Shown in pieces: positions 26,764 through 63,221 of a stretch of DNA of 64,000 bases. Every line of letters starts with the position of its first letter. Position 1 is the stretch's first letter. A program made the translations under genes and the position numbers. The notes under the pieces were generated by a model. That model worked only from the letters and a program-made list of their open reading frames with translations, had not been told where the DNA came from and did no database searches. Source of the stretch: an uncultured Candidatus Saccharibacteria bacterium (GTDB lineage: Bacteria > Patescibacteriota > Minisyncoccia > Phycocordibacterales > UBA918). The stretch lies in assembly GCA_964611205.1 (NCBI GenBank), contig CAZSZB010000003.1, forward strand, positions 23,764 through 87,763, given 5' to 3'.

Positions 26764-26818
26764 TCGAGAGTACTTAGTATAATTTATATTAAATATAAAT
26801 TATACTTAGTAACTCGTG
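26764..26818. repeat. tRNA-associated MITE-like element copy (inverted orientation), itself a near-perfect palindrome
   Basis: The termini tcgagagtacttagta and tacttagtaactcgtg match the copies at 30158-30215 and 63166-63221. Confidence 0.6.
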
Positions 26819-27062
26819 ACGACAAGTCTAGAATATGTAATATTCGAGTTCCTCTACAGAACCTGTAAACAAGTTTCCTAAAACTGCATTCGTATTACAT
26901 TTATAAGTGAAACTTCTAAATAAATACTCACTTGTTTCAGTAGAGTTCAAGAGTGCTTAGTTGTGACGACAAGTCCAGAACCAAAGTTAGAGACCTGGTC
27001 TCTAAGACCTACCTAACTTCCTTGAGTCAAAAGTCTAAGTGTCTGTTAAAATTGTATAGAAT

Positions 27063-27563
27063 TTGCAAATTATGAACGATATCCAGATTATTCTCGATAA
27101 TATACGAAGTGCCCACAATGTGGGCTCTATTTTTCGTACCAGTGATGGCGCTGGGGTATCTAAGATATATTTAGTTGGCTCTACACCTACTCCGGTCGAC
27201 CGGTTTGGTCGAGTTCAAGCGGAAATAAAAAAGACTTCTTTAGGAGCTAGCGAGAGCGTGGCCTTCGAACATATTGGGGAAGCTAGTAGCAAGTCGAGTG
27301 CTGCAGCAGTTAAACTTATTGTTCGATTGAAAGCCGAGGGTTACACCATCGTAGCAGTCGAGCAAGTAAAAAATAGTATTCTCCTACCAGATTTTGTCGT
27401 ACCAGATAAGGTTGTTTATATTTTTGGAGCTGAAGTAGATGGAGTGGGGCCAGAGCTTATAGCGACGGCTGATTGTGTTGTAGAAATACCAATGGCCGGA
27501 ATCAAAGAATCTTTAAATGTTTCAGTCACAGCCGGTATAGTTTTGTTCCATAAACACAAATAA
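27063..27563 (+). CDS. SpoU/TrmH-class RNA 2'-O-methyltransferase
   Basis: SPOUT motifs: an AHNVGSIFRTSDGAG segment, an IVAVEQ segment, and a VVYIFGAEVDGV..EIPMAGIKESLNVSVTAGIVL tail. Confidence 0.75.
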   Translation: MQIMNDIQIILDNIRSAHNVGSIFRTSDGAGVSKIYLVGSTPTPVDRFGRVQAEIKKTSLGASESVAFEHIGEASSKSSAAAVKLIVRLKAEGYTIVAVEQVKNSILLPDFVVPDKVVYIFGAEVDGVGPELIATADCVVEIPMAGIKESLNVSVTAGIVLFHKHK

Positions 27564-27594
27564 TAAGTACTGTGATTAATCACAGTAGTAAAAC

Positions 27595-27637
27595 AAAATC
27601 CCCCAGAGATTAAAATCTCTGGGGGATTTTGTTTTTT
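27595..27637. terminator. bidirectional hairpin aaaatcccccagagatt..aatctctgggggatttt
   Basis: Perfect stem with T-runs on both sides, between the convergent trmH-like gene and murE. Confidence 0.6.
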
Positions 27638-27653
27638 AGAAGACTTAAACTAG

Positions 27654-28949
27654 TTAAGATTTTTTTGGTAGATCAGCCAATTCCTTCTTTACCACCTCGG
27701 CGTCACTCCAGGGTTGTCTGGTGTTATGAGGGCCCATTATATAAGGATCGGTACCCTTACCAGAAACAATAACATAACCACCTTCTTCAGCTTTTTCAAT
27801 CGCAGTTCTTATCGCCAATCTACGATCCATAATAATTTCAAACTTACTCTTATCTTCTATTCCTTTGGCCATTTGCTCGACAATTTTACGTGGGTTTTCA
27901 TCATACGGATCTTCGTTAGTGAGGATCACATAATCACAGTGTTCTTCGGCAATATGAGCCATAACTGGTCTCTTCCATGAGTCGCGTCCACCACCACAAT
28001 TACCCAGTACAGCTATCTTAGGAATACCTTTAAAGGCACCGTATAACTTAGTGAGGGAGTCAGGTGTATGAGCATAGTCCACAACTCCAGTTACGTATTT
28101 TTGAGTTTCGCGATCACTAGTAAAATGCTCAACTCGACCTTTGATAGGCGGTAGGGAACGCAGGGCTTTTTCAATTGTTCGTAATTGTACGCCGAGAGCT
28201 CGAGTTAGAGTAATAGCAGCTAACGCATTATAGACGTTGAAAAGTCCCACCAAAGGAACTCTGATTGTTACTTGTTCGTCGCCATCGTTGAAAATAAGTC
28301 CAGAACCGTCTTTGTGCAGAGTGTAGAGACTGAGATCTTTTAAACAGTATGGTAATTTTTCCTCCACCTTTATATTCAAAAAATCTTCACCATGCTCATC
28401 ATCGGTGTTGACTACGATGTAACGAGGTTGCTTGGCTGAATTTTCTAGTTGTTTAGCAATCTCTAATTTCGCTGCTTTGTATTTTTCGAAAGATCCGTGT
28501 GATTCAATATGTTCAGGAGTTAGATTGGTGAAAACTAAAGCATCCATTTCTATAAAACGATGGCGGAATTGTTTAGCTCCCTCGGATGTCATTTCGATAA
28601 CTGCGTGAGTACAGCCGATATCGACAGCTTTACGTAAAAAGTGTTGAACAAAGAAACGACCAGGTGTGGTCATTTTGTATAAGTTACGTTCGATGGTGTC
28701 TCCGTATTTAAATTGGATGGTAGAAAGAGAGGCTACTTTATGACCGTCAGTTTCCAAAATGGCCGCAATCATTTCAGTGACTGTAGATTTGCCTTTTGTC
28801 CCAGTAACAGCAATTACATTTATTTCTTTAGACGGACTACGGTAGATAAGGTTACCCAAGTATGCTAAAGCAAAGTGATATGGTGGGCGAATAGCCTTTA
28901 GAGCCGATTTGGGGAGTAGTTTTTTGATCCAATATAATATGGTGTCCAT
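27654..28949 (-). CDS. murE: Mur ligase family, MurE-like (UDP-MurNAc-tripeptide synthetase)
   Basis: P-loop AVTGTKGKST and a DYAHTPDSL motif. Confidence 0.65.
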   Translation of the reverse strand: MDTILYWIKKLLPKSALKAIRPPYHFALAYLGNLIYRSPSKEINVIAVTGTKGKSTVTEMIAAILETDGHKVASLSTIQFKYGDTIERNLYKMTTPGRFFVQHFLRKAVDIGCTHAVIEMTSEGAKQFRHRFIEMDALVFTNLTPEHIESHGSFEKYKAAKLEIAKQLENSAKQPRYIVVNTDDEHGEDFLNIKVEEKLPYCLKDLSLYTLHKDGSGLIFNDGDEQVTIRVPLVGLFNVYNALAAITLTRALGVQLRTIEKALRSLPPIKGRVEHFTSDRETQKYVTGVVDYAHTPDSLTKLYGAFKGIPKIAVLGNCGGGRDSWKRPVMAHIAEEHCDYVILTNEDPYDENPRKIVEQMAKGIEDKSKFEIIMDRRLAIRTAIEKAEEGGYVIVSGKGTDPYIMGPHNTRQPWSDAEVVKKELADLPKKS

Positions 28950-28997
28950 AGTTCTAGTATACGATAATAATTAAATTTAAGGGATTGAACTGGCTGG

Positions 28998-29585
28998 TTA
29001 ATTCTGGCCGAGTTCCTTCAGGATTACTTTTATAGCATCATTTACATTATCTATATCGTTTGGTAGTTGTTGTACCAGATTACGGGCTTCGCTTTGCGGG
29101 TAACCAAGAGAGACGAGAGCATCGATGGTGTCTGTCTGGAAACTAGTGATAATGGTGTTGGTGCTTCCATCAGTATGGTTTGCTATACCCAGGTTATCCA
29201 ATTTGTCTTTTAAGCCGAGAACAATTTTTTCAGCCGTTTTTTTTCCAATACCAGACATTTTTGAGAGGTGATTAGGATCATTGTTTAAAACTGCAATTTT
29301 AAGTAATTCAATATCTGCTTGATTCATTATTTGAGCAGCCGACTTAGGTCCTACTTTCGGCAAAGAAAGTAGTAATTCAAAAGTCTCTAATTCATCTAGG
29401 GTAAAAAAACCGTACAAGTCAGAGACCGTATCACGCAGTACGTGGTAAGTATGTAAGGTGATTTCAGCATCTATCTTGAACTGCTCTGTTCGGCTAACAT
29501 AAACCTGATAGCCGATACCATTATTATCAATAACAATATAGTTACTATTTAGGTGAGAGATTTTGCCTGTGATATGTCTAATCAT
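28998..29585 (-). CDS. ruvA: Holliday junction DNA helicase RuvA
   Basis: OB-fold N-terminus (MIRHITGKI..GIGYQVYVS), and HhH motifs LPKVGPKSAAQI and IGKKTAEKIV. Confidence 0.85.
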   Translation of the reverse strand: MIRHITGKISHLNSNYIVIDNNGIGYQVYVSRTEQFKIDAEITLHTYHVLRDTVSDLYGFFTLDELETFELLLSLPKVGPKSAAQIMNQADIELLKIAVLNNDPNHLSKMSGIGKKTAEKIVLGLKDKLDNLGIANHTDGSTNTIITSFQTDTIDALVSLGYPQSEARNLVQQLPNDIDNVNDAIKVILKELGQN

Positions 29586-29728
29586 AAATCTATTAGAGTT
29601 TAGTATACAACAGCTTATCTGATGACGTGTCTAGACATATTCATATATTGTAATTTGTTATAAGGACAATCCTCCAATCTTGCAATTTTTGATAGGTTAC
29701 GGTATAGTTGCGGCCACATAAAAACAAT

Positions 29729-29998
29729 ATGCCAATTACTACAGGAGCAAAAAAAGCCCACCGTTCGTCACTGAAAAAACGTATCTTTAATTTACGTCGA
29801 CGACGTGATATGAACGAGTCTGTTAAAGCAGTACAGAAACTTATTGCCTCTGGCGCAACAGCTGAAGCTGAAAAAATGATGCCAGAAGTATATAAGGTTA
29901 TCGATAAAGCCGCTAAGCGGGGAGTTATTAAAGACAATACAGCTGACCGCAAAAAATCACGATTAATGATTGCTATTGCAAAAACCAAGACTAAATAA
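29729..29998 (+). CDS. rpsT: 30S ribosomal protein S20
   Basis: MPITTGAKKAHRSSLKKRIFNLRRRR... is a basic helical protein of about 89 aa. The start is trimmed to the internal Met. Confidence 0.75.
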   Translation: MPITTGAKKAHRSSLKKRIFNLRRRRDMNESVKAVQKLIASGATAEAEKMMPEVYKVIDKAAKRGVIKDNTADRKKSRLMIAIAKTKTK

Positions 29999-30004
29999 TA
30001 AATC

Positions 30005-30030: not shown

Positions 30031-30157
30031 GATTGGGGGGTGCGGGTTACTAAGTACTCGCGTTTTTATTTGTGAGAAGCTGAAGCTTGTTTATATATTC
30101 TGCGGTCGCACAGATAAGAAAAAAGCACAAACAAGTTGTGCTCTTTTATTTACGCGG

Positions 30158-30215
30158 TCACGAGTTACTAAGTATATTTGTTGTCTATGACTACAGATCT
30201 ACTAAGTACTCTCGA
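30158..30215. repeat. tRNA-associated MITE-like element copy
   Basis: Bounded by cacgagttactaagta and ctaagtactctcga, the same termini as 63166-63221. Confidence 0.6.
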
Positions 30216-30447
30216 ACTCTACGAGTTCTGTACACCTTGTCACTACTCTTTGCTTCACTCAAAGATAGTAGGCAAGGTTTTACGAAGTGACATTGAGTCA
30301 CTTCTCACCCGCCTCGACCGTTTTCATTTCTAGGAAAAAAGAAATGAAAACAAGTCTGCGGCCAGCACCAAGGTACGCAAGCAAAGCAGTTTGCTTGCTA
30401 TAGGAAAGATAGTCAGTTCTTAAAAACTGACTATCTTTCTTATATCT

Positions 30448-30522
30448 TGGTGCTCTCGCCAGGAGTCGAACCTGGAGCATCGGTACCGCAAACCGATATT
30501 TTATCCATTAAACTACGAGAGC
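30448..30522 (-). tRNA. tRNA-Arg (anticodon read as GCG), CCA encoded
   Basis: Hand-folded: acceptor GCUCUCG/CGAGAGC, anticodon stem UCGGU/ACCGA with loop UUGCGGU, and a GGTTCGACTCC T-loop. Confidence 0.7.
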
Positions 30523-30565
30523 AAGCGAGGAAACAAATGAAAGTTTACTTTCATTTGCTTTCCGA

Positions 30566-30711
30566 GAGCAGCTCTCGCAACAAATTCGACGTCAGAAGAA
30601 TTTGTTCCAGTAGAGCAAGCGCCCCGGAAGATTATATTCGATTGTGTCTTGGAGCAGCTCTCGCAACAAATTCGACGTCAGAAGAATTTGTTCCAGTAGA
30701 GCAAGCGCCCG
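30566..30711. repeat. two tandem copies of a 59-bp unit (period 87 bp), each containing the hairpin aacaaattc-N10-gaatttgtt
   Basis: Identical copies at 30566-30624 and 30653-30711. The unit end agtagagcaagcgccc resembles the tRNA-Arg 5' flank. Confidence 0.7.
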
Positions 30712-34177: not shown

Positions 34178-34195
34178 TGGCGGAGAGGGATTCTC
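34178..34195. repeat. partial copy of tRNA-Ser 3' end (ttggcggagag..ggattc), candidate attL
   Basis: Matches 46295-46305 exactly (11 nt) plus a further 6 nt after a 4-nt gap. It has the same orientation as the tRNA gene. Confidence 0.35.
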
Positions 34196-34465
34196 TCGTT
34201 ACACGAGCAGTATACCTTTTGCATCAGATTACTTCGCAAGCTCATAATCTGACGCAAAAGCTTTCGAATCCCCACAGAAGTGACACTGAGTCACTTCTTC
34301 TCTCTCCACCAACAAAATAGCACCCCAAAAAGGGTGCTATTTTGTACTCGCGGGCTACGTGGGTTAAGTACCCACACGTTCAAGCCTTGTAAGGGTATTC
34401 TAGCGCATTTTGGGTATGCGAATCTAGGTACGTGGGTCGGGGTCTAAGAGTAGACAAAGTAGACA

Positions 34466-34912
34466 CTAATAGCGACTTCGGCGGTATCGCTTCTTTCGCC
34501 TGCCTCCAGGCTCTTTAAGGTAAACCCAGAAGCCAGTGAGATTAAGGAGTATCCCAGAGCAAAGGAAGATAAGTAAGTGAAGTGCAAGTGGCCACTTCAA
34601 GCAATAGACAAAGTTGCCGAAGATCGTGGTGAAGATGAGGAATGTCAGGGTCTGCAATCCAAGGTATGTCCCGCTTCCGACAAAGCGGTTGAATGTCGGC
34701 GAGAAGCCGTTGTCGGAATTGTAATGGGCGGTGCCGTTGCGGGTGTAAATCTCCCAAGCTACCCACCCGATCATGGCAAGAATGATCCAGACGAAATGCC
34801 ACGGCCACAGATACTTGATCGCAGTCCAGAGAAAATCGGAAAGCGAAGAAACCGCCATATCCGATACGGTTGAGCAGATTTCTCCAAATGAAAATATTGT
34901 TTGTGGATCCAT
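34466..34912 (-). CDS. hypothetical polytopic membrane protein with Arg/Lys-rich C-terminus
   Basis: 148-aa ORF, hydrophobic, in the island. Confidence 0.35.
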   Translation of the reverse strand: MDPQTIFSFGEICSTVSDMAVSSLSDFLWTAIKYLWPWHFVWIILAMIGWVAWEIYTRNGTAHYNSDNGFSPTFNRFVGSGTYLGLQTLTFLIFTTIFGNFVYCLKWPLALHLLIFLCSGILLNLTGFWVYLKEPGGRRKKRYRRSRY

Positions 34913-35308
34913 GTCTTTGACACCTCGGTTCTGGGAAATGCCCCGACCTCGGCGTTTCTTATCTTCTCGCTAATCGTCAATTTACACTATTGACACTGTG
35001 GATAAATACTTGTTTGATTTTTAATACGGAAGTGCATATAATTCACTCAGTTCTTCACAGATGAAACTACCTTCTCCCTCGGGAGAGGCAGTCCGATCGC
35101 ATAGGTCATCGACCAAAAAAAATATGCGTGAGGGTTGTCGAATGGAGTGCGTATTGAACGAATCGTTGTCGGGTCCATTGTGGCAAAAAGACAGCTGTTC
35201 GAGATCGCAGTCGAAGGCACACCAAGCATCACGCTTGCTGTTTCTTTGAGTGCGATTTTTTGTTTGTAGAAAATCAAAACTCTCCGTGCAGAACTAATTA
35301 TCAATTAT

Positions 35309-36652
35309 TTGAAATTAGTTATGACCAATCACAACCACACATTAGAAATCCAATACGTCGCAGTCGGTGACCTCAAGGAGAACGAATACAACCCGAAGAA
35401 GTTCTCAGCGGAGGCTTTGGACGGCATCAGAGAAAGCGTTACCCGTTTCGGGTTCGCAGATCCATTGGTAGTTAACAGCAACGAAGAGCGGAAAAACATT
35501 CTCATCGGAGGACATGCACGCCTCAAGATCGCCAAGGAGCTCGGCTTCGAGACCGTACCAGTCGTCTTCGTTAATCTGAGTGAAGACAAGGAAAAGGAAC
35601 TCAACCTCCGTCTCCACAGGAACCAAGGAGCGTTCGACTTGGAACTGCTCGCAAAGTTCGACGAGACGCTTCTTGCGGACATCGGATTCAACTCGGAGGA
35701 TCTCGATTCGATCTTCAACATGGACCCGACACCCGAGCACTTCGACCTCAAGAAGGAACTTGAGAAGTTGAATATCAAGGACGTGAAGGTAAAGCACGGA
35801 GACCGATACGAGATCGACGGCTCGATCCTCATGTGCGGAGACAGCACCATCGAGGAAGACATGCTCAAGCTCATGCAGGGAGCAAAAGCCGACATGGTGA
35901 TGACCGATCCTCCTTACATTCTCGACTACCTCAAGGGTAAGACGAAGAACAAGGACGGGATCACGGAAGGCTTCGGTGCGAAGAAGAACCGCGTCTATCT
36001 CGGCACCACTTCCTTGCCCGACAACTTCACCGACCTCTGGATGAACGGCGTGTCCAAGGTTCAGAAGGAGGACTTCTCGATCGTCATCTTCGAGCATCCG
36101 AAGAATCTCCGCACCATCTGGAACGCACTTGAGAAGCACTGGAAGTATCGCAACACCATCACATGGCACGTGCCAAACCGCATGCAGGGATTCGCTGGGA
36201 AGTACAAGCTTTTCAACAAGCAGGACATCGCACTTGTAGGAAGCACCGACCGAGTGATCGTTAATCTCGAGCCAGAGGATGAGCTGTTCCAGAACGAGTA
36301 CGAGAATGCCATTTATGCCACGAGCGGAAGACCGCATTGGGAAAGCTACGGCAAAGGAAAGAAGAACTGCCCGACGGACTTCATCGAGCACATCGCCGCA
36401 GACAAGAAGTCCTCTGGTCAGGACATCATATTTGGCACGAAGCCGATAGAGCTTCTCATCCCGTACATCAAGGTACTCACGAAGCGTGACGACTTGGTGC
36501 TCGAGCCGTTCGGAGGATCGGGATCAACGCTCATCGCATCGCTGAAGATCGGACGCAAGTGCCGCATCATGGAGAAGCAGCCGATCTATGCGGAGGTCAT
36601 TATCAAACGCTGGGAGAAAGCGACCGGCAAGAAGGCGGTGAAGATAGACTAG
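35309..36652 (+). CDS. ParB-like nuclease domain fused to N4/N6 DNA methyltransferase (beta-class)
   Basis: N-terminal ParB/Srx motif (ILIGGHARLKIAKELG). Motif IV VMTDPPY comes before motif I LEPFGGSGST. Confidence 0.8.
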   Translation: MKLVMTNHNHTLEIQYVAVGDLKENEYNPKKFSAEALDGIRESVTRFGFADPLVVNSNEERKNILIGGHARLKIAKELGFETVPVVFVNLSEDKEKELNLRLHRNQGAFDLELLAKFDETLLADIGFNSEDLDSIFNMDPTPEHFDLKKELEKLNIKDVKVKHGDRYEIDGSILMCGDSTIEEDMLKLMQGAKADMVMTDPPYILDYLKGKTKNKDGITEGFGAKKNRVYLGTTSLPDNFTDLWMNGVSKVQKEDFSIVIFEHPKNLRTIWNALEKHWKYRNTITWHVPNRMQGFAGKYKLFNKQDIALVGSTDRVIVNLEPEDELFQNEYENAIYATSGRPHWESYGKGKKNCPTDFIEHIAADKKSSGQDIIFGTKPIELLIPYIKVLTKRDDLVLEPFGGSGSTLIASLKIGRKCRIMEKQPIYAEVIIKRWEKATGKKAVKID

Positions 36653-36653
36653 T

Positions 36654-37229
36654 ATGGCAAAGCAGAAAGAAGCGGTCGCTACCGCACAGCTGAAGCACAA
36701 GCTCGTACAGCACCTACGGGACATCCCGATCCCGACATATGCGTGCCAGCGGGTCGGCGTTCCCAAAGCCACCTACTACAAGTGGCGGAAGACAGACCAG
36801 ATATTCCGTGAAGCGAGCGACGAGGCGATCATCACGGGAAAGCTCACACTTAATGATGTTGCTAAGTCCCAGCTCGTGAAGCTCATCAAGGAGGGAGACT
36901 ATCGCTCGATCAACTTCTGGCTGAAGCACAACGACGAGGACTTCGGATCGAAGCTCAAGCTTGAGATCGAGGACAGGACGAGAAAGTACGACCCCGAAGA
37001 ACTCAAACTCATGGCGACAGCGATGCATAATGCAGGATTGGTCGGCGTTACACTCGCTCACCAAAAGATGGCGAAGGTGTTTCAGGGATTGCAGGAAAAG
37101 GAAGAAGAGCGAGCCAACGAGAAGAACGAATACGACGAGGATGAAGAACCTGTCGTTCAGGAAAAACAGAAGCGAAAAGGCGGAGTGAAGATTGCAGAGT
37201 TTATGAAGAAGAGGAAGTCTGAGGAATAA
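36654..37229 (+). CDS. HTH DNA-binding protein, phage terminase small subunit-like
   Basis: N-terminal HTH (ACQRVGVPKATYYKWRK), and charged helices downstream. It is translationally coupled to the ParB-MTase. Confidence 0.4.
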   Translation: MAKQKEAVATAQLKHKLVQHLRDIPIPTYACQRVGVPKATYYKWRKTDQIFREASDEAIITGKLTLNDVAKSQLVKLIKEGDYRSINFWLKHNDEDFGSKLKLEIEDRTRKYDPEELKLMATAMHNAGLVGVTLAHQKMAKVFQGLQEKEEERANEKNEYDEDEEPVVQEKQKRKGGVKIAEFMKKRKSEE

Positions 37230-37659
37230 GTCGCCTCAGCACCTCTCCCGTGAGGATGCGGTGCTTCTTGAAGGCGTTGCACCGCTTGCATGCAAGCGTC
37301 AGGTTTCTCGGGTGGTTGGAGCCGAAGCTTTGTGGTTCGACTTTCACACCCGACACGCCTTTCATCTTACGAAGCTCCTTGTTCAGGACATTCGATGACA
37401 GCGGAATGATGTGGTCGGGTTCGAAGATTCCATCGTTGGTGCACTCAGGGTGAATGCTTAACTGGCATTCGCCTTTGTGCTTTTCGATGAGTTCATGCAA
37501 TACCTTCTTGCTGGTCTTGTCGAATTGCCACCGCTTGATTGCAGGATGCTGAAAATCAAAGAGATCGGAATATTCTTTGTTGAAATACTCTAGGTCTCCG
37601 TCTGCAAGCAGGTGTACGAAAAAATCCTGATCCTCAGGATTTTCAAACTGCATTCGCAA
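37201..37659 (-). CDS. HNH endonuclease
   Basis: A CxxC ... H-N-H core (EPDHIIPLS..NHPRNLTLACKRCNAFKKHR). Confidence 0.8.
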   Translation of the reverse strand: MRMQFENPEDQDFFVHLLADGDLEYFNKEYSDLFDFQHPAIKRWQFDKTSKKVLHELIEKHKGECQLSIHPECTNDGIFEPDHIIPLSSNVLNKELRKMKGVSGVKVEPQSFGSNHPRNLTLACKRCNAFKKHRILTGEVLRRLIPQTSSSS

Positions 37660-38002
37660 TGAAGATGAAAAGGACTATGGCGGTAAAGACAACTAAACCG
37701 ATGAGTACCTTTTCGCTTCGAGTATAGATTCGAGCAGGTTCTTTTTCAGCCAGAGCCTGCTCGAGTGTTTTGCCTTGGTCAGCCAAGAGCTTCTGTCCGA
37801 TTGGAGAATCCAACGGAATCAGATTGGTCGCACCACAGGCGGAGCACTTCTTGTACCTTGATGACGATCGCCACACCGAATATATGAGACCCGGAATGAT
37901 GAAGAAGCACCAGAGGATTATTTCTATTAAAAGGTTTCCCTTAACGGCAGTTTTGGAACTGCCAATATGCCCACAAGCGGAGCATATGAGTTTCTTAGAC
38001 AT
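37643..38002 (-). CDS. zinc-ribbon (2x CxxC) membrane protein
   Basis: CSACGH..CSACG pairs flank a TM helix, with a second TM at the C-terminus. It overlaps the HNH start by 17 nt. Confidence 0.4.
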   Translation of the reverse strand: MSKKLICSACGHIGSSKTAVKGNLLIEIILWCFFIIPGLIYSVWRSSSRYKKCSACGATNLIPLDSPIGQKLLADQGKTLEQALAEKEPARIYTRSEKVLIGLVVFTAIVLFIFIANAV

Positions 38003-38227
38003 GTTTTTTGGACGGTTTTCATGACGCTAATAATTCTGGTAGGTAGCAAAAATCTCCTAACCAGGGCTGATATATCCCGTGAGATATACCCATACCCCTT
38101 TCGGGATATGACCGTCCAAAGTGGCCTCTGATTAGGAGGTTTTTACTTTGGACGGAATTTGCGACCATATCCTAGAAAACCAAGGGTTCTTTAGGGGTTA
38201 GGTCGACTGTATTCAGTTGTATGTACA

Positions 38228-38250
38228 TGATACCAAAATTGATGGTATCA
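38228..38250. promoter_or_regulatory. palindrome tgatacca-N7-tggtatca upstream of the putative restriction endonuclease gene
   Basis: 8-bp perfect arms, about 80 bp upstream of the 38330 start. Confidence 0.3.
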
Positions 38251-38329
38251 GTCAGTACCTTAGCTTAGTTATTGGGTCTTGCGAAGGGCTTCATAAAGGC
38301 TTGATAAATTGCTAGAATGAGGCGTAACC

Positions 38330-39397
38330 ATGGCAGTATCCGCTCAAAAAGTAAGCAAGTATGTCGATTCCATTTCCAAGAGCGGTCTTAGCATCTATGA
38401 CCCTATTGAAGTCGGAGATCCAAATCTTTGGATACCTTCAGGAGAACTGGAGGTTATTTTGAATGAGGCTTTAAAAGGTCTCTCCCTTACAGGTCTGCCC
38501 CTAAGAACACGATCAAAAGTTGTGAAGCAGAAAGTATGCTCTGCTTTGGGCTATCCTGTGCCAAATAGTTTTGAGAAAACACAGCCACGTTTCCCAGGAC
38601 AGTGCTTCGATACTTATATTCAGAAATCAAACAACTTGCAGATTTGGAACGAAGAACTTTCATCAACCCGACGATACGTAACGATCAAAGTAACCGACGA
38701 AGACGTGGTTGAAGTTGTACGTGTCGTAACTGGAGACACTCTTGCTGTACTTGATACAACAGGCACCCTCACTCAGAAATACCAAGCTCGACTTACAGTC
38801 GGTGATAATGTGTCAGAACTTGTATCTGCGGAGGATACTGACCGAATCGTTGCGATAATCGAATCTGCAAACGGTGATCAAAAGCTTGGTGATCCCACAG
38901 ATCATGTATCAGCTGAAAACATTCTTCCTATCGAAGATGTATTTGAAAAACTTAAGACAATAATCGGAAAGTCTTTTGCTGACGCTGGTTCTGATCAAGA
39001 AAGGAATCGAGGTGGACTACTCCACAAACTAGTGTGTCATGCATTGGGTTATGAAATACATCGAGACAACGGACAGTTTCCTGATGTACCGAATCAATTA
39101 CTTGAAGTAAAGCTTCAAACTTCTCCAACTATTGATCTTGGCTTGGTTACACCCGACAGTAAGGACGCATTGGATACGCCTAAAATCAACGGGAAGCAGA
39201 TACGTCACTGCGACGTTCGCTATGCAATCTTTTATGCCAACATCGAGAACGGACAAATTAATGTCACCAACCTTTTTCTATCAACAGGAAAAGATTTCTT
39301 TAGTCGTTTCCCTCGCTTTGAAGGAAAGGTACTTAATAAGAAAATTCAGATACCCCTTCCGTCAGATTTTTTCACCTATAAGCCGAAGGCTGAATAG
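38330..39397 (+). CDS. putative type II restriction endonuclease (PD-(D/E)xK-like)
   Basis: Convergent and overlapping by 22 bp with the N6-adenine MTase gene. It has a candidate catalytic HRDNGQFPDVPNQLLEVKLQT segment (D..EVK). Confidence 0.45.
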   Translation: MAVSAQKVSKYVDSISKSGLSIYDPIEVGDPNLWIPSGELEVILNEALKGLSLTGLPLRTRSKVVKQKVCSALGYPVPNSFEKTQPRFPGQCFDTYIQKSNNLQIWNEELSSTRRYVTIKVTDEDVVEVVRVVTGDTLAVLDTTGTLTQKYQARLTVGDNVSELVSAEDTDRIVAIIESANGDQKLGDPTDHVSAENILPIEDVFEKLKTIIGKSFADAGSDQERNRGGLLHKLVCHALGYEIHRDNGQFPDVPNQLLEVKLQTSPTIDLGLVTPDSKDALDTPKINGKQIRHCDVRYAIFYANIENGQINVTNLFLSTGKDFFSRFPRFEGKVLNKKIQIPLPSDFFTYKPKAE

Positions 39398-41070
39398 ACA
39401 AGTTTGTTTAGCTTCTCCTCCTGAGAATCAAATTCAGCATCTACAGGCAACTCGTAGATTGATTTAGTTAAGTTGATGATCTCTTTTGCTATCTTTGATT
39501 TTGGATCAGGCAATGGAAACTTCTCAACGTATTGAGTAATAAAGCGTCTTCGTCCCGAGTAGAGTTTATTGTTGAAACTGTGGTCGTAGAACTCCTCGAC
39601 AAACTTTGAGTTTGCAATTGCCAAAGCGAGCCACAGCAATTCGGAATTATCTTCTTCTGAAGTTAACCAGTAGCAGTCTCCATTCACCACACCGCCTGTT
39701 TGATCCATCCAAAAGATTGGTTGTTCAGAAATATCTCTGAAGACTAACTTGGGCTTCTCCCAAGTCTTTGGATTATGAGGAACCCAGATCTCGTACCAGT
39801 TACGTCCTGAATCAATCACGTAACTTCTCGATGAGAGCTGATCTTTGTGTTCTTCAAGATACCTTTTTACGTTGGGATACTGATCAAGATCAATGGGCTT
39901 CTTTTTGTTGCCGATTTCCTCATGTGTGTAAACAACATGCTTCTTTGCTGAATCTGTTTTGTATCTTCTTGCGACGTGATGAGTAATCAGTGGCTTTAGA
40001 GTTTCAGGTAGGTTTCCATTAAATTTAGAAATGTCGGATACGATAAAAACATTGTCAGCAGTCGTTTTGATACCAACTTTTACCTTGCCAATATCCCCAA
40101 ATAAAAGTTGAGTCTTTTCTTTAACTTTCTTCAACCACAGGTCTGCTTTGTCATGAGCAAGCCTCCATGTGTCGCCGATCTTATTGCCAATATCAAGCTT
40201 GCCGTGCAGTACTTTAAAATGTTCCGATTCCTCTCCTTCGAGTGATTGAAAGACTTGTTGTGGATCAATCTTTGTATTCTTTCCCGAAAGATATATTGAT
40301 GTGAATCTAGGGTCAGCATCCTTTGATGTCTCTTTTTGCAAAAGCAGAACAGCTGGAAGCACTGCCGCTTCAAACAAGCGTGTATCTCCTAAATCCCATA
40401 CATGTAGAACACTAAAATCATTTAGGAGATTCTTTCGAACAGCTTCGCCTGATTTAGTGGTAAGAAAGCGATTGGAAACAATGATACCTACTACACCTTC
40501 TGGCTTAAGAAGTTTCTCAATTCCTTTTAGGAAAGCGTGATACAGATCAACTCGACCTGAGAGATTAAAATCTTCCGCAAGCTTTTGAGCCTTTTCAGCA
40601 CCCATGACTTGAGTTCTGACATAAGGCGGATTCGCAATAACAAGATCAAAGAGTGGAACATCTGTTTTTGAAAACAAAGAACCTCCATAAGTTTCAGAGA
40701 CCCATTCTAAGAAATCCTGAGTTTTAATATCAGCCTTAACTTCAGGGAAATCCTTCTTGATTAGATCCAGAGAAGCATCAACTGCATCTTGATTAATATC
40801 GAAACCGAATACTTCGATTTTATTGAATCCGCGCGAGTAGGCTATCTGTATAAGATTACGCAGAAGCTCCCCGTCACCAACAGCAGGATCAATTACTTTT
40901 AGTGTTTTGGTTTTCTTTAAATTCTTTTTCTCAACTTGATCAAAGATTTGAGATGCCACAAAGCCAGCCAAAGAAGTTGGGGTGTAATGAGCCCCTGTAT
41001 TCTTTCTTAATCCAGCATCGAGTTGTGCATCTAAAGTTGGCATTTGTAAACCTATTTTAACATTTTTCAA
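39376..41070 (-). CDS. N6-adenine DNA methyltransferase, gamma-class (Eco57I/TaqI-like) with C-terminal target-recognition half
   Basis: A TGAHYTP segment, motif I VIDPAVGDGELL and motif IV VIANPPY. 564 aa. Confidence 0.85.
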   Translation of the reverse strand: MKNVKIGLQMPTLDAQLDAGLRKNTGAHYTPTSLAGFVASQIFDQVEKKNLKKTKTLKVIDPAVGDGELLRNLIQIAYSRGFNKIEVFGFDINQDAVDASLDLIKKDFPEVKADIKTQDFLEWVSETYGGSLFSKTDVPLFDLVIANPPYVRTQVMGAEKAQKLAEDFNLSGRVDLYHAFLKGIEKLLKPEGVVGIIVSNRFLTTKSGEAVRKNLLNDFSVLHVWDLGDTRLFEAAVLPAVLLLQKETSKDADPRFTSIYLSGKNTKIDPQQVFQSLEGEESEHFKVLHGKLDIGNKIGDTWRLAHDKADLWLKKVKEKTQLLFGDIGKVKVGIKTTADNVFIVSDISKFNGNLPETLKPLITHHVARRYKTDSAKKHVVYTHEEIGNKKKPIDLDQYPNVKRYLEEHKDQLSSRSYVIDSGRNWYEIWVPHNPKTWEKPKLVFRDISEQPIFWMDQTGGVVNGDCYWLTSEEDNSELLWLALAIANSKFVEEFYDHSFNNKLYSGRRRFITQYVEKFPLPDPKSKIAKEIINLTKSIYELPVDAEFDSQEEKLNKLVYSAFGL

Positions 41071-41111
41071 GATCGCTTGATACCTTAGCTTAGACCTGAA
41101 AAATTGTGTAA

Positions 41112-41507
41112 TTGGTTACCAGATTGACCCTTTGCAGACCTCTGGACTTATTTGCAGTTCAGCGTCATTCCTTGGGTGTGGATGAAGATATCGAGGCAAT
41201 TATTGATGCGAGTAAGCATTTCAAATACCACGAGGAGCGTGGGATGACCCTCTTTAATCGCGTCTCTCATCTACCCGAATCAAAGCGACACATGAAGATG
41301 GCAATTAAGGAACGCATACTCTTCTTGGCAGGTGCTTATATATCTCTTGCGTCATTCATTGATGATGACCTCGTGGATTTCTTAGAGAACGCTGACAATG
41401 AATCAGATAAAGAAAAAATAAAGAGAATTTATAGCGATGTAATCAAACAGATGGATACTCTACGTAAGGAGATGGAAGAATTCAAAATCATAGACTTACC
41501 AACCTAA
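41112..41507 (+). CDS. hypothetical protein upstream of the recombinase (true start probably internal)
   Basis: ORF with a charged helical C-terminus. Confidence 0.3.
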   Translation: MVTRLTLCRPLDLFAVQRHSLGVDEDIEAIIDASKHFKYHEERGMTLFNRVSHLPESKRHMKMAIKERILFLAGAYISLASFIDDDLVDFLENADNESDKEKIKRIYSDVIKQMDTLRKEMEEFKIIDLPT

Positions 41508-41541
41508 GGGTACTTAGGACGCTCTGGACTCTTCAAAGGGA

Positions 41542-42882
41542 TTGCGTCATTCATTGGGTTGTATGAATAACGCAATATCAATGCCGTACGGGACAACGGT
41601 ACAAGAGCAAGTCCCTGTAAAGGTGAAGTACTGCCTTTATGCGAGAAAGTCGACAGAATCGGAGGAGCGACAAGTGCTGTCCATAGATAGCCAGATCAAG
41701 GAGATGCTCCAGCTCGCGGATCGAGAATGTTTAGAGATTGTGGAGATGAAGCGAGAGTCACACTCTGCAAAAGAGACAGGTCAGCGACCAGTCTTCAATG
41801 AAATAATCGAGGAGATACGAGAAGGAAAATACAACGGTATCCTGACATGGGCACCAGACCGTATTTCAAGAAACGCAGGTGACCTTGGAAGGATTGTAGA
41901 CCTGATGGATTCGGGCAAGCTTGAGGAAATACGAACTTTTGGTCAGAAGTTCGGCAACAATCCAAACGAGAAGTTTCTCCTGATGATTCTGGGGTCACAA
42001 GCAAAGCTTGAGAACGACAATCGAGGAATCAACGTGAAGCGAGGTCTGCGAACGAGAGCGGAGATGGGGCTATGGTCAGGCATGCCTCCTCTCGGGTACG
42101 TGACGCAGGGACTAATGGAAAAGAAATGTCAGGTAGCGGTAGATCCGCTACGAGCACCAACAGTGAAGAAGATGTTTGAGAAAGTTGCATACGAACAATG
42201 GTCTGGGCGAAAGGTATACAACTGGCTGAGGTTTGAGCTGAACTTCTACACCAGAGGAAACAAACCACTCACTCTCGGAGGTGTGTATCGCATATTAGAA
42301 AACCCTTTCTACTATGGAGTGTTCGAGAGACCAAAGAAGAGCGGAAACTGGTATCAAGGAAAGCACACGCCACTCATCACGCAGGAACTGTTCGAGAAAG
42401 CAAAGGCACAGCTTAAGCGTGACCAGATAGTGCGAGAGACGAAGGAGTTCGCATTCACTAAGCTCTTCACCTGCGGGTACTGCGGAAGCGGGATATCCGC
42501 CGAAGAGAAATGGAAACAGCTCAAGGATGGCGGCGTGAACAGATACATCTACTACTCCTGTGCCAGATCAAGAGACCGCAACTGCAAGAACATGTACATA
42601 CGAGAAGAAGATTTGATACTCGAACTACTGAAAATACTCGACAAAGTGAACATCAACGAGCTTGGCATGCGAAAGAAACTGGAGGATGAGATTGCGAGGT
42701 TCAATATATTCCAAAGGTCGGTACTCGGCGCCAAAGAAAAGATAAAGACGGATGCAGAGACAGATATCAGGAACTATGCGAAGTACATCCTAAAAGAAGG
42801 GTCTACTACTGAAAAACGAGAGCTATTGGCTAACCTGAGATCACGAATTGAATACAAAGATAAGAACCTAAGGCTCGTCTAG
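41542..42882 (+). CDS. large serine recombinase (resolvase catalytic domain + recombinase domain + zinc ribbon)
   Basis: YARKSTESEERQ catalytic Ser motif, a recombinase domain, and CGYCGS..YYSC zinc-ribbon cysteines. Confidence 0.85.
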   Translation: MRHSLGCMNNAISMPYGTTVQEQVPVKVKYCLYARKSTESEERQVLSIDSQIKEMLQLADRECLEIVEMKRESHSAKETGQRPVFNEIIEEIREGKYNGILTWAPDRISRNAGDLGRIVDLMDSGKLEEIRTFGQKFGNNPNEKFLLMILGSQAKLENDNRGINVKRGLRTRAEMGLWSGMPPLGYVTQGLMEKKCQVAVDPLRAPTVKKMFEKVAYEQWSGRKVYNWLRFELNFYTRGNKPLTLGGVYRILENPFYYGVFERPKKSGNWYQGKHTPLITQELFEKAKAQLKRDQIVRETKEFAFTKLFTCGYCGSGISAEEKWKQLKDGGVNRYIYYSCARSRDRNCKNMYIREEDLILELLKILDKVNINELGMRKKLEDEIARFNIFQRSVLGAKEKIKTDAETDIRNYAKYILKEGSTTEKRELLANLRSRIEYKDKNLRLV

Positions 42883-42962
42883 ACAGAATAGATGGGTTGT
42901 TGCAAAAGTGTTAAAATAGAGGCGTAACATGAAATCCAAATTTCACCTTACGAGAACATTGC

Positions 42963-46256: not shown

Positions 46257-46295
46257 CCCGAGCCCCATTCAAGGGTACTCGGGTCACTCCGATAC

Positions 46296-46385
46296 TTAGT
46301 TCTCTTGGCGGAGAGAGAGGGATTCGAACCCTCGGTACGCGTAAACGTACAACGGTTTTCAAGACCGCCGCCTTCAACCACTCAG
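46296..46385 (-). tRNA. tRNA-Ser (anticodon TGA), long variable arm, CCA encoded
   Basis: Hand-folded: GGAGAGA acceptor, GCTGAGTGGTTGAAGGC D-arm, anticodon loop CUUGAAA, long extra arm, and a GGTTCGAATCC T-loop. Confidence 0.9.
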
Positions 46386-54325: not shown

Positions 54326-54526
54326 AACAAACCCAATATATATGTTCTGGGCAGAGATACAATAGCAAATTATGGTGAGAATTTAAACCAAAGCAGACGG
54401 GAGCTTCGCCCCCGTCTGCTTTGGTTTAAATAATTTAGTTGTTTTATCCAGAAAAAAGAGCGGGTCAAACAAGTGATATAAATATTGTGCTTGTGACACG
54501 CTCTTGAGTTTTTCTGATCTGGCCGC

Positions 54527-54691
54527 CTATTCAGCAGCCAGATCAGGTTGCTCCGGTATCTTGGCAGGTTCGGAATACTGTTCCTCCACCAGCTCGAACT
54601 CTCGGCTGCCCTCGGTGAGATTCCCGTGGGTTATGGCGTCGGCTAACTGAGGATATTTGTCCGCAATCAGCTTAACTTCTTTGTGGCACAT
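54527..54691 (-). CDS. candidate 54-aa ORF in GC-rich patch with consensus SD (AGGAGG-6-ATG)
   Basis: Hand translation gives MCHKEVKLIADKYPQLADAITHGNLTEGSREFELVEEQYSEPAKIPEQPDLAAE. Local GC is about 55%. Confidence 0.3.
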   Translation of the reverse strand: MCHKEVKLIADKYPQLADAITHGNLTEGSREFELVEEQYSEPAKIPEQPDLAAE

Positions 54692-55356
54692 TTTATCCTC
54701 CTGTCTGTCTATGCCCTGACCTCACTATAACTGCTGTGGGGTGAGATTTTCTCCTGACTTTGTGGATAAAGAAGTTAATTAATTAGTGAAAAGAAAATAA
54801 AGCCCAAACTGTAAAGATTATCGATTCTTAGAATAGTATCGTAACTGCAAATAATACAGATTGACCCACGAAAGATGCAAATCAATCCGTGGGTCAGATC
54901 AGGCGGTTCGAATCTTGTATTGATTGCCAGCACTGCCGGCAAAGAACATGGTCTTTATCTGGGGGAGGTCCCCAGCGACCCTGTATACAAACTCGAATTC
55001 TCCGACCACATTCGCAGTATCTAGACATAACGATCTCCCTACGACCGTGGTTGTCTCTTTATTATGAATATAATTGATAGCTTGTCAATTAATTATTTTC
55101 CTACCCGAGTATTTGTATAATTGTGGGGTCAAGTTTCTAATTCGCTTTGCTCATAAGAACTTCCTCCTCGGACTCGACTGTTTCCTTTAAAGGGAGCGAA
55201 AGATTTGAATCTTACAGATTCGGTACACCTTTTGGGGGTTTTAATTCGCTTTGCTCTTAAAACTCCACAAAAGCTTTTCAAATCTCACGTAACAGTGTGT
55301 AAGCACTGTTACTTCATCGCGCACAAGAAAAACCGCCAAAGGCGATTTTCTAATTG

Positions 55357-55429
55357 TGCGCGATGAGAGATTTGAACTCCCGACCTTCGCAGTGTAAATG
55401 CGCTGCTCTACCAACTGAGCTAATCGCGC
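55357..55429 (-). tRNA. tRNA-Val (anticodon TAC)
   Basis: Hand-folded: GCGCGAU acceptor, AGCTCAGTTGGTAGAGC D-arm, anticodon loop UUUACAC, and a GGGAGTTCAAATCTCTC T-arm. A terminator hairpin lies at 55327-55349. Confidence 0.85.
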
Positions 55430-55914
55430 AGACGTGTTGTCTGTGTTTTTTTGTAAAGAGTGTATGTAATACGCCTCCTCACAGGAGCTGTACAGGTTAT
55501 CAGTATTTTTCGTAAACTTAAAATATCAGGTAACCTCTTGCGAAGTGACGTTAGGTCACTTCTCACTCCACCACCTTCGCTAATTACGCGTCGGCACCTG
55601 TAATAGGTACGTCCACGTTCTGAATGTGTGGCAAAAAGTATAGCGTATATAAGACTAAATGCAATAGTTTTACTATTTAAACGATAAATATATTAGGTAA
55701 AAATGGAGGTCGATCCCCAAAGGGATCGACCTCCATACTTGTTACCGACTCTTGCCTTGACGCCAGGGTGTGCGTCCCTGATTGTTGTGTTCGGTTTCGT
55801 CACGAGCTCGAATCGGTGTACCAAGAATCATCTTTGCCTCCTCTGTTGCTGATTCCTCCGCTCCATATATTTTATAAGTCGATTTCTGTTTATTTGCAAG
55901 GTATACTTCAACCC

Positions 55915-60214: not shown

Positions 60215-60334
60215 GAATGTTAGTGGATAAAGGTGTCCTAGGTTTTCCTAGAACGATAGAGTAAGGAAGGTCTTAATTGTGTTTGATGGGAATATGATAA
60301 TGTTTTGCTGGTTTCTACAAATTTTAATTTAGGG

Positions 60335-62239: not shown

Positions 62240-62423
62240 TTATGTAGTATAACAATATTATGTCTAATTAATTAGGACCAAGATTAGACAAGGAACAATT
62301 ATTGTGGTGCCTATTATATGTACCATTGAGGTGTTATAATATAAATATAAGAGGGTGATACCTATCATCATCTGTTACTACTAAATCGTATCGCACTCTT
62401 AAGCGGTCGAAACAATAAAATAT

Positions 62424-62798
62424 ATGAATACAAAAAATGTATTATTAGCAATTCTCATAGTGTTCGTTTTTGCTGTTGGCTTTATGATGGGGCGTTTTAG
62501 TTCCGTTGGTAGCTCATACATGAGTGGCCCAGCATCAGCACCGGCCACCATAAACACAGATAGTGATAATGGTGACGCTACCACTGCTGAAGGTACGACA
62601 ATTCAAGCTTCGAGTTTGTCTGAGGGACAAATTAAATTACTCGGCGCTCTCGGTATTGATGCTGACTCAATTAATGTAACACCAGAGATGGTTGCTTGTG
62701 CGGAAGCCAGTTTAGGTTCAGCGCGAATAGAGGAGATTATTAATGGAGCCACTCCGTCTTTTTCGGAAGGCCTCAAGTTAGCTGGATGTTATAAATAA
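62424..62798 (+). CDS. small secreted protein
   Basis: N-terminal hydrophobic anchor, 124 aa. Confidence 0.35.
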   Translation: MNTKNVLLAILIVFVFAVGFMMGRFSSVGSSYMSGPASAPATINTDSDNGDATTAEGTTIQASSLSEGQIKLLGALGIDADSINVTPEMVACAEASLGSARIEEIINGATPSFSEGLKLAGCYK

Positions 62799-62812
62799 CT
62801 AAAAATAAATAT

Positions 62813-63061
62813 ATGGGTATATTACTATGGATAGTGTTTGGTGCATTAGTTGGTTGGGTGGGATCAATGATTATGGGTACCGATGAACAACAAGGTCTAA
62901 TTCTCAACATTGTAGTGGGTGTTATTGGAGCAAGTCTTGGTGGGTACATCATGAGCTTGTTTGGTGAAAGTGGTGTCAGTGGTTTCAACCTGTACAGCTT
63001 CGTGGTAGCAGTTGTCGGAGCTATAGTACTGCTGGCCATTTTGAAACTTATTCGGGGATAG
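62813..63061 (+). CDS. GlsB/YeaQ/YmgE family membrane protein
   Basis: 82 aa with an ALVGWVGSMIMG...GVIGASLGGYI pattern. Confidence 0.8.
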   Translation: MGILLWIVFGALVGWVGSMIMGTDEQQGLILNIVVGVIGASLGGYIMSLFGESGVSGFNLYSFVVAVVGAIVLLAILKLIRG

Positions 63062-63100
63062 AATTGATTTGTTAGGTAAGAACAACCCAACCACTGAAGT

Positions 63101-63137
63101 AAAAAACAACACTCCTTAGAAAGGAGTGTTGTTTTTT
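63101..63137 (+). terminator. hairpin aaaaaacaacactcctt-aga-aaggagtgttgtttttt
   Basis: Perfect stem plus T-run after the GlsB-like gene. Confidence 0.6.
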
Positions 63138-63165
63138 CTAGGGAGACTACCGGGAAGGAATCGGT

Positions 63166-63221
63166 CACGAGTTACTAAGTTTTTTATTTCGTTTCATTCA
63201 TAAAAATCTAAGTACTCTCGA
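63166..63221. repeat. tRNA-associated MITE-like element copy
   Basis: Termini cacgagttactaagt and ctaagtactctcga, adjacent to tRNA-His. Confidence 0.6.

Follow-up and report, generated by a model that had tools for sequence, protein, structure and literature searches.

Hairpin repeats beside tRNA genes of a Saccharibacteria contig as probable modules of RtT-like, tRNA-linked structured units

Repeats linked to tRNA genes, known as RtT RNA, have been recognised in E. coli for decades. Strain MG1655 carries four RtT copies (Rfam RF00391) in its tyrT-tyrV operon, with a spacing of 178 bp between the repeats 3' of tyrV. Each of the latter ends in the last 19 nt of tRNA-Tyr, and in the closing stem of the Rfam consensus, GGGGAAGGAU/AUCCUUCCCC, an inverted copy of the tRNA 3' end pairs with a direct one. 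The rtT RNA has been described as linked to processing of the tyrT transcript (10.1101/2024.07.17.603846). Here we analyse a 64,000-nucleotide stretch, hereafter the window, from an uncultured Candidatus Saccharibacteria bacterium (assembly GCA_964611205.1, contig CAZSZB010000003.1, positions 23,764 to 87,763). Within it, a sequence-only reading had singled out a 57-bp element with inverted termini and a separate hairpin, GAAGTGAC-N5-GTCACTTC, both near tRNA genes, and had taken them for two repeat families. We consider it probable that these elements are hairpin modules of larger tRNA-linked repeat units sharing the architecture of E. coli RtT. The window holds a local sample of RtT-like, tRNA-linked structured units that occur throughout Patescibacteria, also called the candidate phyla radiation (CPR), and are absent from Rfam.

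Several other described systems share some of these properties. Integron attC sites and the CTX-phage attP(+) site are strand-specific imperfect palindromes with a variable end, in which structure is conserved over sequence and no enzyme is encoded. Plant mitochondrial t-elements and the tRNA-like domains of tmRNA and of bacterial Y RNAs join a mimic of the acceptor/T-arm minihelix to another RNA, and such mimics could recruit RNase P, RNase Z or the CCA-adding enzyme. Elements that integrate at tRNA genes form a further group, among them the tycheposons, integrase-carrying elements with partial tRNAs whose description makes no mention of hairpins or palindromes (10.1101/2020.12.28.424599). 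In the part of the literature searched on Patescibacteria/CPR tRNA repeats, tRNA-like RNAs and structured RNAs, no description of the present units was found. A paper on tRNA introns of Patescibacteria proved unrelated, as it concerns group I introns at position 35/36.

Architecture and structure of the units

The 57-bp element is present at the three places claimed for it, with exact end motifs and well above chance. The 15-mer CACGAGTTACTAAGT has three exact copies in the window (30159(+), 63166(+) and 26818(-)) and gives five matches at up to three mismatches, against 1.6 expected. The 14-mer CTAAGTACTCTCGA also has three exact copies (30202(+), 63208(+) and 26777(-)). These motifs delimit spans of 30159-30215, 63166-63221 and 26764-26818, whose arms pair into an imperfect hairpin and whose AT-rich interiors are unrelated to one another. 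The second hairpin matches three times against 0.03 expected, at 30284 and 34277 as proposed and at 55542 rather than 55543. A motif fragment reported near 30046 is likewise real and reads as a collapsed, decayed copy of the 57-bp hairpin. We named the 57-bp element hairpin H1, of an H family, and the GAAGTGAC hairpin P3, of a P family.

ARAGORN finds seven tRNA genes in the window. All three H1 elements lie on the 3' side of a tRNA in identical relative orientation, and the neighbouring genes are those named earlier (Arg, His and Lys). The gap to the tRNA 3' end is 233 nt for Arg(gcg), 118 nt for His and 370 nt for Lys, so that the proposed limit of 300 bp holds for the first two and fails for the third. 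The P3 hairpin at 34277 is 84 nt from a copy of the tRNA-Ser 3' end (34178-34193). The tRNA-Arg(tct) and tRNA-Leu genes of the window have no unit.

Comparison of copies in the window and in loci fetched from other genomes (designated L with a number) shows units of 150-300 nt that lie directly 3' of a tRNA or tmRNA gene and read in its direction. From the tRNA outwards, the order is a hairpin/terminator, an inverted copy of the tRNA 3' end, a structured non-coding cassette and a direct copy of the tRNA 3' end. The inverted copy comprises the complement of the acceptor 3' strand followed by that of the T-stem 3' strand and ends in the T-loop complement GAAUCGAA; in many cases, an additional hairpin (H3 or P3) divides it at precisely the point where acceptor and T-stem meet. 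The direct copy starts inside the T-loop, at C56/G57, has a median length of 15 nt and reaches into the trailer mainly where units stand in tandem. On a single strand, these copies pair with each other and close the cassette with a stem of 10-12 bp that mimics the acceptor/T minihelix of the tRNA. The inverted repeat frequently continues through the trailer, and the tRNA end then makes up one palindrome with its inverted copy, with the terminator loop in the middle (L013, L023 and L002).

Both hairpins first noticed in the window belong to such cassettes, which means that they are not two independent families: both are parts of larger units, and the outer stem of such a unit comes from tRNA 3'-end copies. 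The H cassette consists of H2', reading GNCGGAG..hairpin..CGAGN'CGG, and H1', reading GGUCGAGAGUACUUAG-inner hairpin-ACUUAGUAACUCGUGACC, which is the 57-bp element on its other strand. The P cassette consists of P3' (the GAAGTGAC hairpin or a covarying equivalent), a long variable P2', the sequence GGUGUAC and P1', whose loop is UGUAA. With 26 copies in the window and the fetched loci together, this cassette sits in the same tRNA-derived frame. At least three more cassette types fill this frame 3' of other tRNAs in the fetched loci. A target-derived origin of the 5' arm of P1 was considered and dropped when more copies were compared, P1 being an ordinary covarying cassette hairpin.

The cassettes have a conserved fold on one strand. 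Window stretches around the elements gave folding z-scores of -3.9 to -9.5. An alignment of 20 H cassettes supports a consensus of 24 pairs that covary wherever the sequence varies; the outer H2' pair, for example, is AU in 10, CG in six, GC in two and UA in two, and is never broken. A covariance model (CM) built from these 20 sequences finds only three H-type copies in the 64-kb window, all beside tRNAs, and scores them 104, 59 and 51 bits when the tRNA-sense strand is read but only 26, 24 and 17 bits for the opposite strand (unit B, 63163-63263(-); unit C, 26718-26821(+), 58.8 bits; unit A, 30156-30258(-), 50.8 bits; units are lettered as in Table 1). In 80 loci selected through a neighbouring Mur ligase gene, the model found 17 further, independent copies. 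Of the cells in these copies, 94.4% pair, where column shuffles give 73% and slid partners 26-43%; compensatory double changes occur at 19 of the 24 pairs.

One G.U pair is present in 20 of 20 seed sequences and 14 of 17 independent ones, and RNAfold energies favour the tRNA-sense strand by 104 to 13 for H1, 55 to 4 for H2 and 23 to 3 for the P type. The invariant G.U pair and the folding energies agree in assigning the structure to the tRNA-sense strand, the reverse of the orientation in which the elements had first been read. The strand-biased scores and energies therefore indicate that the functional form is a single strand co-oriented with the tRNA. The simplest reading of the sequences is that this strand would be RNA.

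Of the systems known, RtT comes closest to the units, and the resemblance lies in this architecture. Like RtT, the units stand 3' of a tRNA gene in its orientation, repeat in tandem, have a structured interior and end in a direct copy of the tRNA 3' end that starts in the T-loop; in units B, D and F of the window, the closing stem is likewise made of the inverted and the direct copy. Unlike RtT, the CPR units comprise several cassette families at 18 or more tRNA isotypes plus tmRNA, usually follow a terminator-like palindrome, which carries the inverted repeat on across the trailer, often have the additional hairpin between acceptor and T-stem and are clearly gained, lost and nested. No sequence or structure homology is detectable in either direction. 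The RtT model has no match in the window at gathering level, nor at E values up to 10 over the unit regions, and the H-type model finds nothing in E. coli tyrTV, where as a positive control the RtT model gave four matches of 133-138 bits. A wider Rfam cmscan, at gathering level and at E values up to 10 over the unit regions, placed no family at any unit, the sole overlap being a chance-level freshwater-2 match (21.9 bits, E 7).

Occurrence across Patescibacteria and change at orthologous sites

We scanned one genome per GTDB species with the pattern AGTTACTAAGT-N16-42-CTAAGTACTCT. The H1 termini occur exactly in at least 119 stretches, nearly all from records titled as Patescibacteria; the titles among the matches listed include Saccharibacteria, Paceibacteria, Yonath-, Nomura- and Kaiserbacteria, Minisyncoccia and ‘Patescibacteria group’. 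Since the termini are conserved across a phylum-level radiation, a genome-specific miniature inverted-repeat transposable element (MITE) is ruled out. The same pattern had no match in a scan of viral contigs, and there is thus no phage link. Only two listed H1 matches come from records titled otherwise than as Patescibacteria or unclassified bacteria, namely metagenome-assembled genomes (MAGs) of Patiriisocius sp. (L007) and Parachlamydiaceae (L056); these have typical units and are probably mis-binned CPR contigs.

The close tie to tRNA genes proposed from the window extends to these genomes. Among the matches listed, which comprise 124 H1 copies with the three of the window included, 97 copies are found no more than 700 nt from a tRNA gene (18 isotypes) or a tmRNA gene. 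The gene is always on the CTAAGTACTCT side and on the strand opposite to the original reading orientation, with a median gap of about 121 nt. Most of the remaining 27 copies sit at contig ends. When the open reading frames (ORFs) of the 119 loci were clustered, only housekeeping neighbours such as LepA and SmpB recurred, and no recurrent recombinase or transposase was found.

The Mur-ligase loci, picked through the gene and not through the motif, give an unbiased set. There, 20 of 74 tRNAs have a direct copy of their own last 14 nt 30-420 nt downstream, and none of the 74 has such a copy upstream. Over all fetched loci, a 3'-end repeat accompanies 88 of 306 tRNA or tmRNA genes, mostly 100-200 nt away.

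The gene order tRNA-Ser(tga) / tRNA-Arg(gcg) / mur / tRNA-Lys(ttt) is conserved in these loci, which allows orthologous flanks to be compared. In about 13 relatives, the 3' flank of tRNA-Arg(gcg) consists of a plain terminator followed by the next gene, with no unit. L131 and L069 have at this tRNA an H unit homologous to unit A of the window, without its 127-nt nested P cassette, and further relatives carry other cassette families or two or three tandem copies. The units are therefore insertional, as the sequence-only reading had supposed. In one MAG, JBBDJV01, an identical 78-nt P cassette stands beside both tRNA-Arg and tRNA-Lys, flanked in each case by copies of the respective tRNA end.

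Units are thus seen to be gained and lost at orthologous sites, to stack in tandem, to nest and to be parted from their tRNA by islands. In the window, L090 and L103, several kb of genes, including restriction-modification and OLD-type nuclease genes, separate the tRNA from an otherwise complete distal unit. No integrase was seen in the islands of L090 and L103. The window island carries a large serine recombinase, and nothing connects this recombinase to the units.

Units of the window and neighbouring features

The coordinates of the units, their parts and the linked tRNA genes are collected in Table 1.

Table 1. Units, unit parts and linked tRNA genes in the window
Feature	Positions	Strand	Details
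Unit B	63141-63306		H type, at tRNA-His
Unit B, H1' hairpin	63163-63223	-	GGUCGAGAGUACUUAG-[variable inner hairpin]-ACUUAGUAACUCGUGACC; 57-bp element first given as 63166-63221; exact motifs
Unit B, junction and H2' hairpin	63224-63264	-	junction AUCGAAAG; H2' GACGGAG..hairpin..CGAGUCGG; same CM match (model R1) as H1'
Unit B, inverted tRNA-His 3'-end copy	63258-63306	-	compared with tRNA-His; acceptor-strand complement UGGAGCGGCUA; H3' hairpin 63274-63293; T-stem/T-loop complement CCGGGAAUCGAA
Unit B, direct tRNA-His 3'-end copy	63141-63162	-	slightly decayed, GAUUCC[UU]CCCGGUAGUCUCCC; closes unit B
Terminator beyond direct copy of unit B	63103-63138		
Hairpin/terminator between tRNA-His and unit B	63310-63336		
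tRNA-His(gtg)	63339-63413	-	ARAGORN; linked to unit B
Unit A	30139-30398		H type with nested P cassette, at tRNA-Arg
Unit A, H1' hairpin	30156-30217	-	57-bp element first given as 30158-30215; exact motifs
Unit A, nested P-type cassette between H1' and H2'	30211-30308	-	P1 30211-30225; P2 30235-30277; P3 30284-30304 (the GAAGTGAC hairpin); absent from orthologous units of L131 and L069
Unit A, H2'	30309-30361	-	
Unit A, inverted tRNA-Arg 3'-end copy	30362-30373	-	CCUUGGUGCUGG
Unit A, H3' hairpin	30377-30398	-	GCAAGCAAACUGCUUUGCUUGC; H3 consensus recurs at many loci
tRNA-Arg(gcg)	30448-30522	-	linked to unit A; hairpin 30404-30439 in between
Relic of older H1', distal to unit A	30044-30063	-	collapsed; CGCGAGUACUUAGUAACCC
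tRNA-Lys(ttt)	26321-26394	+	ARAGORN; head of array 26395-26975
tRNA-Lys array	26443-26975		P unit, H unit C with nested P, relics
P-type unit directly 3' of tRNA-Lys	26443-26546	+	partial inverted tRNA-end copy, P2', UGUACAG, P1' (GAAUA-UGUAA-UAUUC), direct copy 26526-26546; same type in L007
Unit C, H2' region with nested P-type cassette	26614-26760	+	P3' GAAAGUAC-CAAA-GUACUUUC 26647-26666; P2' 26671-26710; P1' 26714-26729
Unit C, H1' hairpin	26761-26821	+	inverted copy of the 57-bp element, 26764-26818; exact motifs
Decayed pieces of tRNA-Lys array	26822-26975	+	P1' and tRNA-end-like tail 26822-26860; collapsed H1'-like relic 26940-26975
Unit D	34178-34346	-	complete P type at distal end of the 12-kb GC-rich island between D and tRNA-Ser; terminator 34313-34346; inverted acceptor copy 34300-34312; P3' 34277-34297 (the GAAGTGAC hairpin); T-loop/T-stem complement 34261-34273; P2' 34216-34260; P1' 34195-34207; direct tRNA-Ser 3'-end copy 34178-34193
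Unit F	55200-55350	-	P type, 3' of tRNA-Val (55356-55429); terminator 55328-55350; inverted acceptor copy 55313-55327; P3' 55289-55312; T-loop complement 55276-55288; P2' 55228-55275; P1' 55207-55221; T-loop copy 55200-55211
Unit E	55475-55575	-	orphan P cassette; P3' is the GAAGTGAC hairpin at 55542; 5' side of tRNA-Val, no linked tRNA or matching tRNA end nearby

The island at about 34347-46305, between tRNA-Ser(tga) and unit D, is GC-rich, with up to 54% GC against about 39% in its flanks. It encodes a ParB-N/N6_N4 DNA methylase, an HNH protein, an Eco57I/TaqI-type methylase with an adjacent unannotated 355-aa protein, the large serine recombinase (41542-42882) and a 1097-aa ResIII/DEAD helicase. 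It also contains a match to LOOT RNA (Rfam RF03000; 38069-38204(-), 73.4 bits, gathering score 46.4) between a small membrane-protein ORF and a putative restriction gene. In relatives, the distance between tRNA-Ser(tga) and tRNA-Arg(gcg) is about 0.7-2.6 kb. The trailer of tRNA-Ser(tga) in the window (in the region 46256-46305) is AGAGAACUAAGUAUCGGAGUGACCCGAGUACCC. The same trailer follows the distal direct copy of an H unit in L074, a Nomurabacteria MAG (2008-2123 and flanks), in which the tRNA-Ser beside that unit has a different acceptor stem. This placement would fit an original tRNA end displaced by an incoming unit or tRNA.

Other observations concern the surroundings of individual tRNA genes. 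With respect to the conserved Mur ligase gene, tRNA-Arg(gcg) and tRNA-Lys(ttt) change direction among related genomes (L120-L199 compared with the window), a flip that may reflect inversions between inverted tRNA-end copies. Directly 5' of tRNA-Arg(gcg) stand two identical 59-nt copies in the tRNA's orientation (30566-30624 and 30652-30710, minus-strand reading). Each starts with a copy of the tRNA leader and of the 5' acceptor strand (GCUU-GCUCUAC), continues with a 10-bp hairpin and closes with the 3' acceptor strand, likewise copied (CGAGAGC). This arrangement suggests that mini-tRNA-like repeats of an acceptor stem plus a hairpin also occur 5' of a tRNA gene. Between tRNA-Arg(tct) and unit F, about 900 bp (54330-55200) are non-coding; this stretch holds a perfect 24-bp palindrome (54381-54431), small ORF-like segments and a further decayed cassette resembling the GUCC..UUCUUAUGAGC type of L094 and L110.

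Readings of the units and their meaning

We consider the following model of how the units work the most likely. The structured strand would be RNA, co-transcribed with the tRNA or just after it, and the inverted and direct tRNA-end copies would pair to mimic the acceptor/T minihelix. Enzymes that process tRNA ends would then probably release the cassette RNA, as reported for RtT. Lacking a recombinase of their own, cassettes may spread inside a Patescibacteria genome and from one such genome to another by means of a host function that acts in trans and would recognise the T-loop and the minihelix. Other RNAs with tRNA-like parts differ in that the minihelix of the units is an exact copy of the neighbouring tRNA and that its T-loop is interrupted by the cassette.

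Several results weigh against this model. In about half of the cases, a hairpin and T-run expected to terminate transcription stand between the tRNA and its unit, and no convincing promoter was found for the units. At 9 of 10 informative positions, which are all that the comparison offers, the inverted copy tracks the real tRNA end and not the distal direct copy; such tracking agrees less well with selection for an RNA minihelix than with a DNA palindrome that has the terminator at its centre. A folded intermediate of single-stranded DNA could explain the strand bias equally well. With no homology detectable either way, the parallel with RtT is therefore architectural only, and no model that we formulated explains how a cassette gains flanks matching each new tRNA.

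Ordinary signals of tRNA expression, that is terminators, trailers or promoters conserved together with the tRNA genes, would account for the constant position of the motifs relative to the tRNA 3' end and for the hairpin with T-run in front of about half of the units. However, because many relatives, about 13 at tRNA-Arg(gcg), have the same tRNA with a plain terminator and no unit, the motif is not a mere tRNA promoter or terminator. Only about a quarter of the tRNAs in the unbiased set carry a tRNA-end repeat, two tRNAs of the window itself do without a unit, and several unrelated cassette families occupy the same frame. We regard this explanation as very improbable, and we think just as little of the model that the sequence-only reading had put forward, in which a genome-specific MITE or repetitive extragenic palindrome (REP), moved by a transposase or read by the serine recombinase of the island, lies beside an unrelated hairpin family.

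That model was correct in recognising a real family of non-coding, hairpin-forming repeats, and the imperfect inverted termini, the three copies within 64 kb, the recombinase in the island and the P-type unit abutting the island's end all speak for it. Like MITEs and REPINs (REP doublets mobilised by RAYT transposases), the units are short, intergenic and multi-copy. Their hairpin sequence, however, is conserved across classes of a phylum-level group and not within one species, the variable interior covaries, and the location is fixed beside tRNA genes. The inverted termini are the arms of a covarying hairpin, and no autonomous transposon with related ends is indicated, as neither a transposase nor a recombinase recurs near the 119 loci. 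In place of near-identical copies with a fixed target-site duplication, there are unlike interiors flanked by tRNA 3'-end copies of 13-25 nt, one inverted and one direct. Nor do the units resemble REPs or REPINs in range, since identical termini span many Patescibacteria lineages; no partner transposase was seen, although REP-associated tyrosine transposases were not specifically searched for. The supposed second family is a module of the same kind of unit, nested inside the first, and the units sit in housekeeping neighbourhoods without a recombinase, and nothing ties them to that of the island.

A stronger competitor, though still an unlikely one in our judgement, is that the units are DNA remnants or miniature forms of integrative elements targeting the T-loop, comparable to cis-mobilizable elements (CIMEs), with the direct repeat as the att core, the hairpins as attP arms and the recombinase encoded elsewhere. 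As in CIMEs, tRNA-targeting islands and tycheposons, direct repeats of the tRNA 3' end flank an insert; they run for 13-25 nt from the T-loop to the tRNA 3' end, a classic sublocation of integrases, and tmRNA genes are targeted too. Empty sites, nesting and tandem accretion, in which successive insertions push older ones outward, have the same appearance, and cargo islands sit at the same tRNAs, with defence genes between the tRNA and the distal unit in the window, L090 and L103. Two TACTAAGTA boxes, 32-34 bp or about three helical turns apart, would also suit protein binding sites. However, no integrase was found in or beside the units of the 119 loci, nor in two of the three islands examined. 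Covariation, the invariant G.U pair and the strand asymmetry of hairpins that fill only 150-300 nt indicate a folded single strand rather than duplex protein sites. Known att sites have neither an inverted tRNA-end copy nor an extra hairpin at the acceptor/T-stem junction, and the identical cassette in the frames of two tRNAs would be difficult for a sequence-specific attP.

If the folded strand were DNA, the units could be recombination substrates in the manner of attC or CTX attP(+). A host tyrosine recombinase, Xer-like or integron-like, would exchange one strand at the T-loop sequence TTCGAA, and replication would resolve the product; on the tRNA-sense strand, the inverted and direct tRNA-end copies would mimic a duplex tRNA gene. 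This would agree with a strand-specific structure that is kept while its flanking stems vary in sequence, with the pairing of the inverted copy and the tRNA-proximal copy as a palindrome centred on the terminator loop, with a crossover region inside the palindromic TTCGAA and with the absence of an enzyme encoded in cis. Against it, the proposal is purely inferential, has no recombinase to name and leaves the match of the stems to each tRNA unexplained; the invariant G.U pair would be more usual in an RNA, as would the conserved internal loops, and no viral or plasmid copies were found. Unlike attC and CTX attP(+), the units have no integron integrase or attI context and target the tRNA T-loop, and the R/L-box consensus of integron attC is not evident by eye in the H1 or P modules. 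The resemblance to these sites would thus be conceptual only, and we consider this reading improbable.

A number of further ideas were dropped on inspection: a promoter with -35/-10 elements in the AT-rich interior, hammerhead or other known ribozyme cores, a K-turn in H2', TTAC targeting by IS200/IS605 insertion sequences, guides like the bridge RNA of IS110, an analogy to retroviral primer-binding sites and snap-back reverse transcription. Some of these misfit the sequences and others lack a supporting enzyme or signature; formal exclusion came only from the Rfam scans.

Together, our results favour tRNA-linked repeat units of RtT-like architecture, present in Patescibacteria at a much larger scale than the E. 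coli design. About a quarter of the tRNA genes in one lineage have a downstream copy of their own 3' end, there are several cassette families with structures conserved across classes, and gain, loss, nesting and tandem growth are visible at orthologous sites. Many of the ‘partial tRNA’ calls and long non-coding stretches beside tRNA genes of reduced CPR genomes are explained by the units, which also mark the distal ends of defence islands. Because they are absent from Rfam, covariance models for the units would improve annotation. The origin of the units, the copying of the tRNA end and the role of the RNA are approachable by comparative genomics together with RNA-seq in the few cultured Saccharibacteria.

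We further propose, tentatively, that the units form a large, uncatalogued superfamily of protein-free cassettes with at least 5-6 structural families, which may install themselves at the T-loop 3' of tRNA and tmRNA genes, enclosed by tRNA-end copies, and would form a minihelix mimic fused to a structured RNA. If this is true, the superfamily would represent either a new RNA-structured mobile element that uses a host tRNA-recognising activity or an abundant new class of tRNA-mimicking non-coding RNA, and the RtT of E. coli would be an isolated relative by design.

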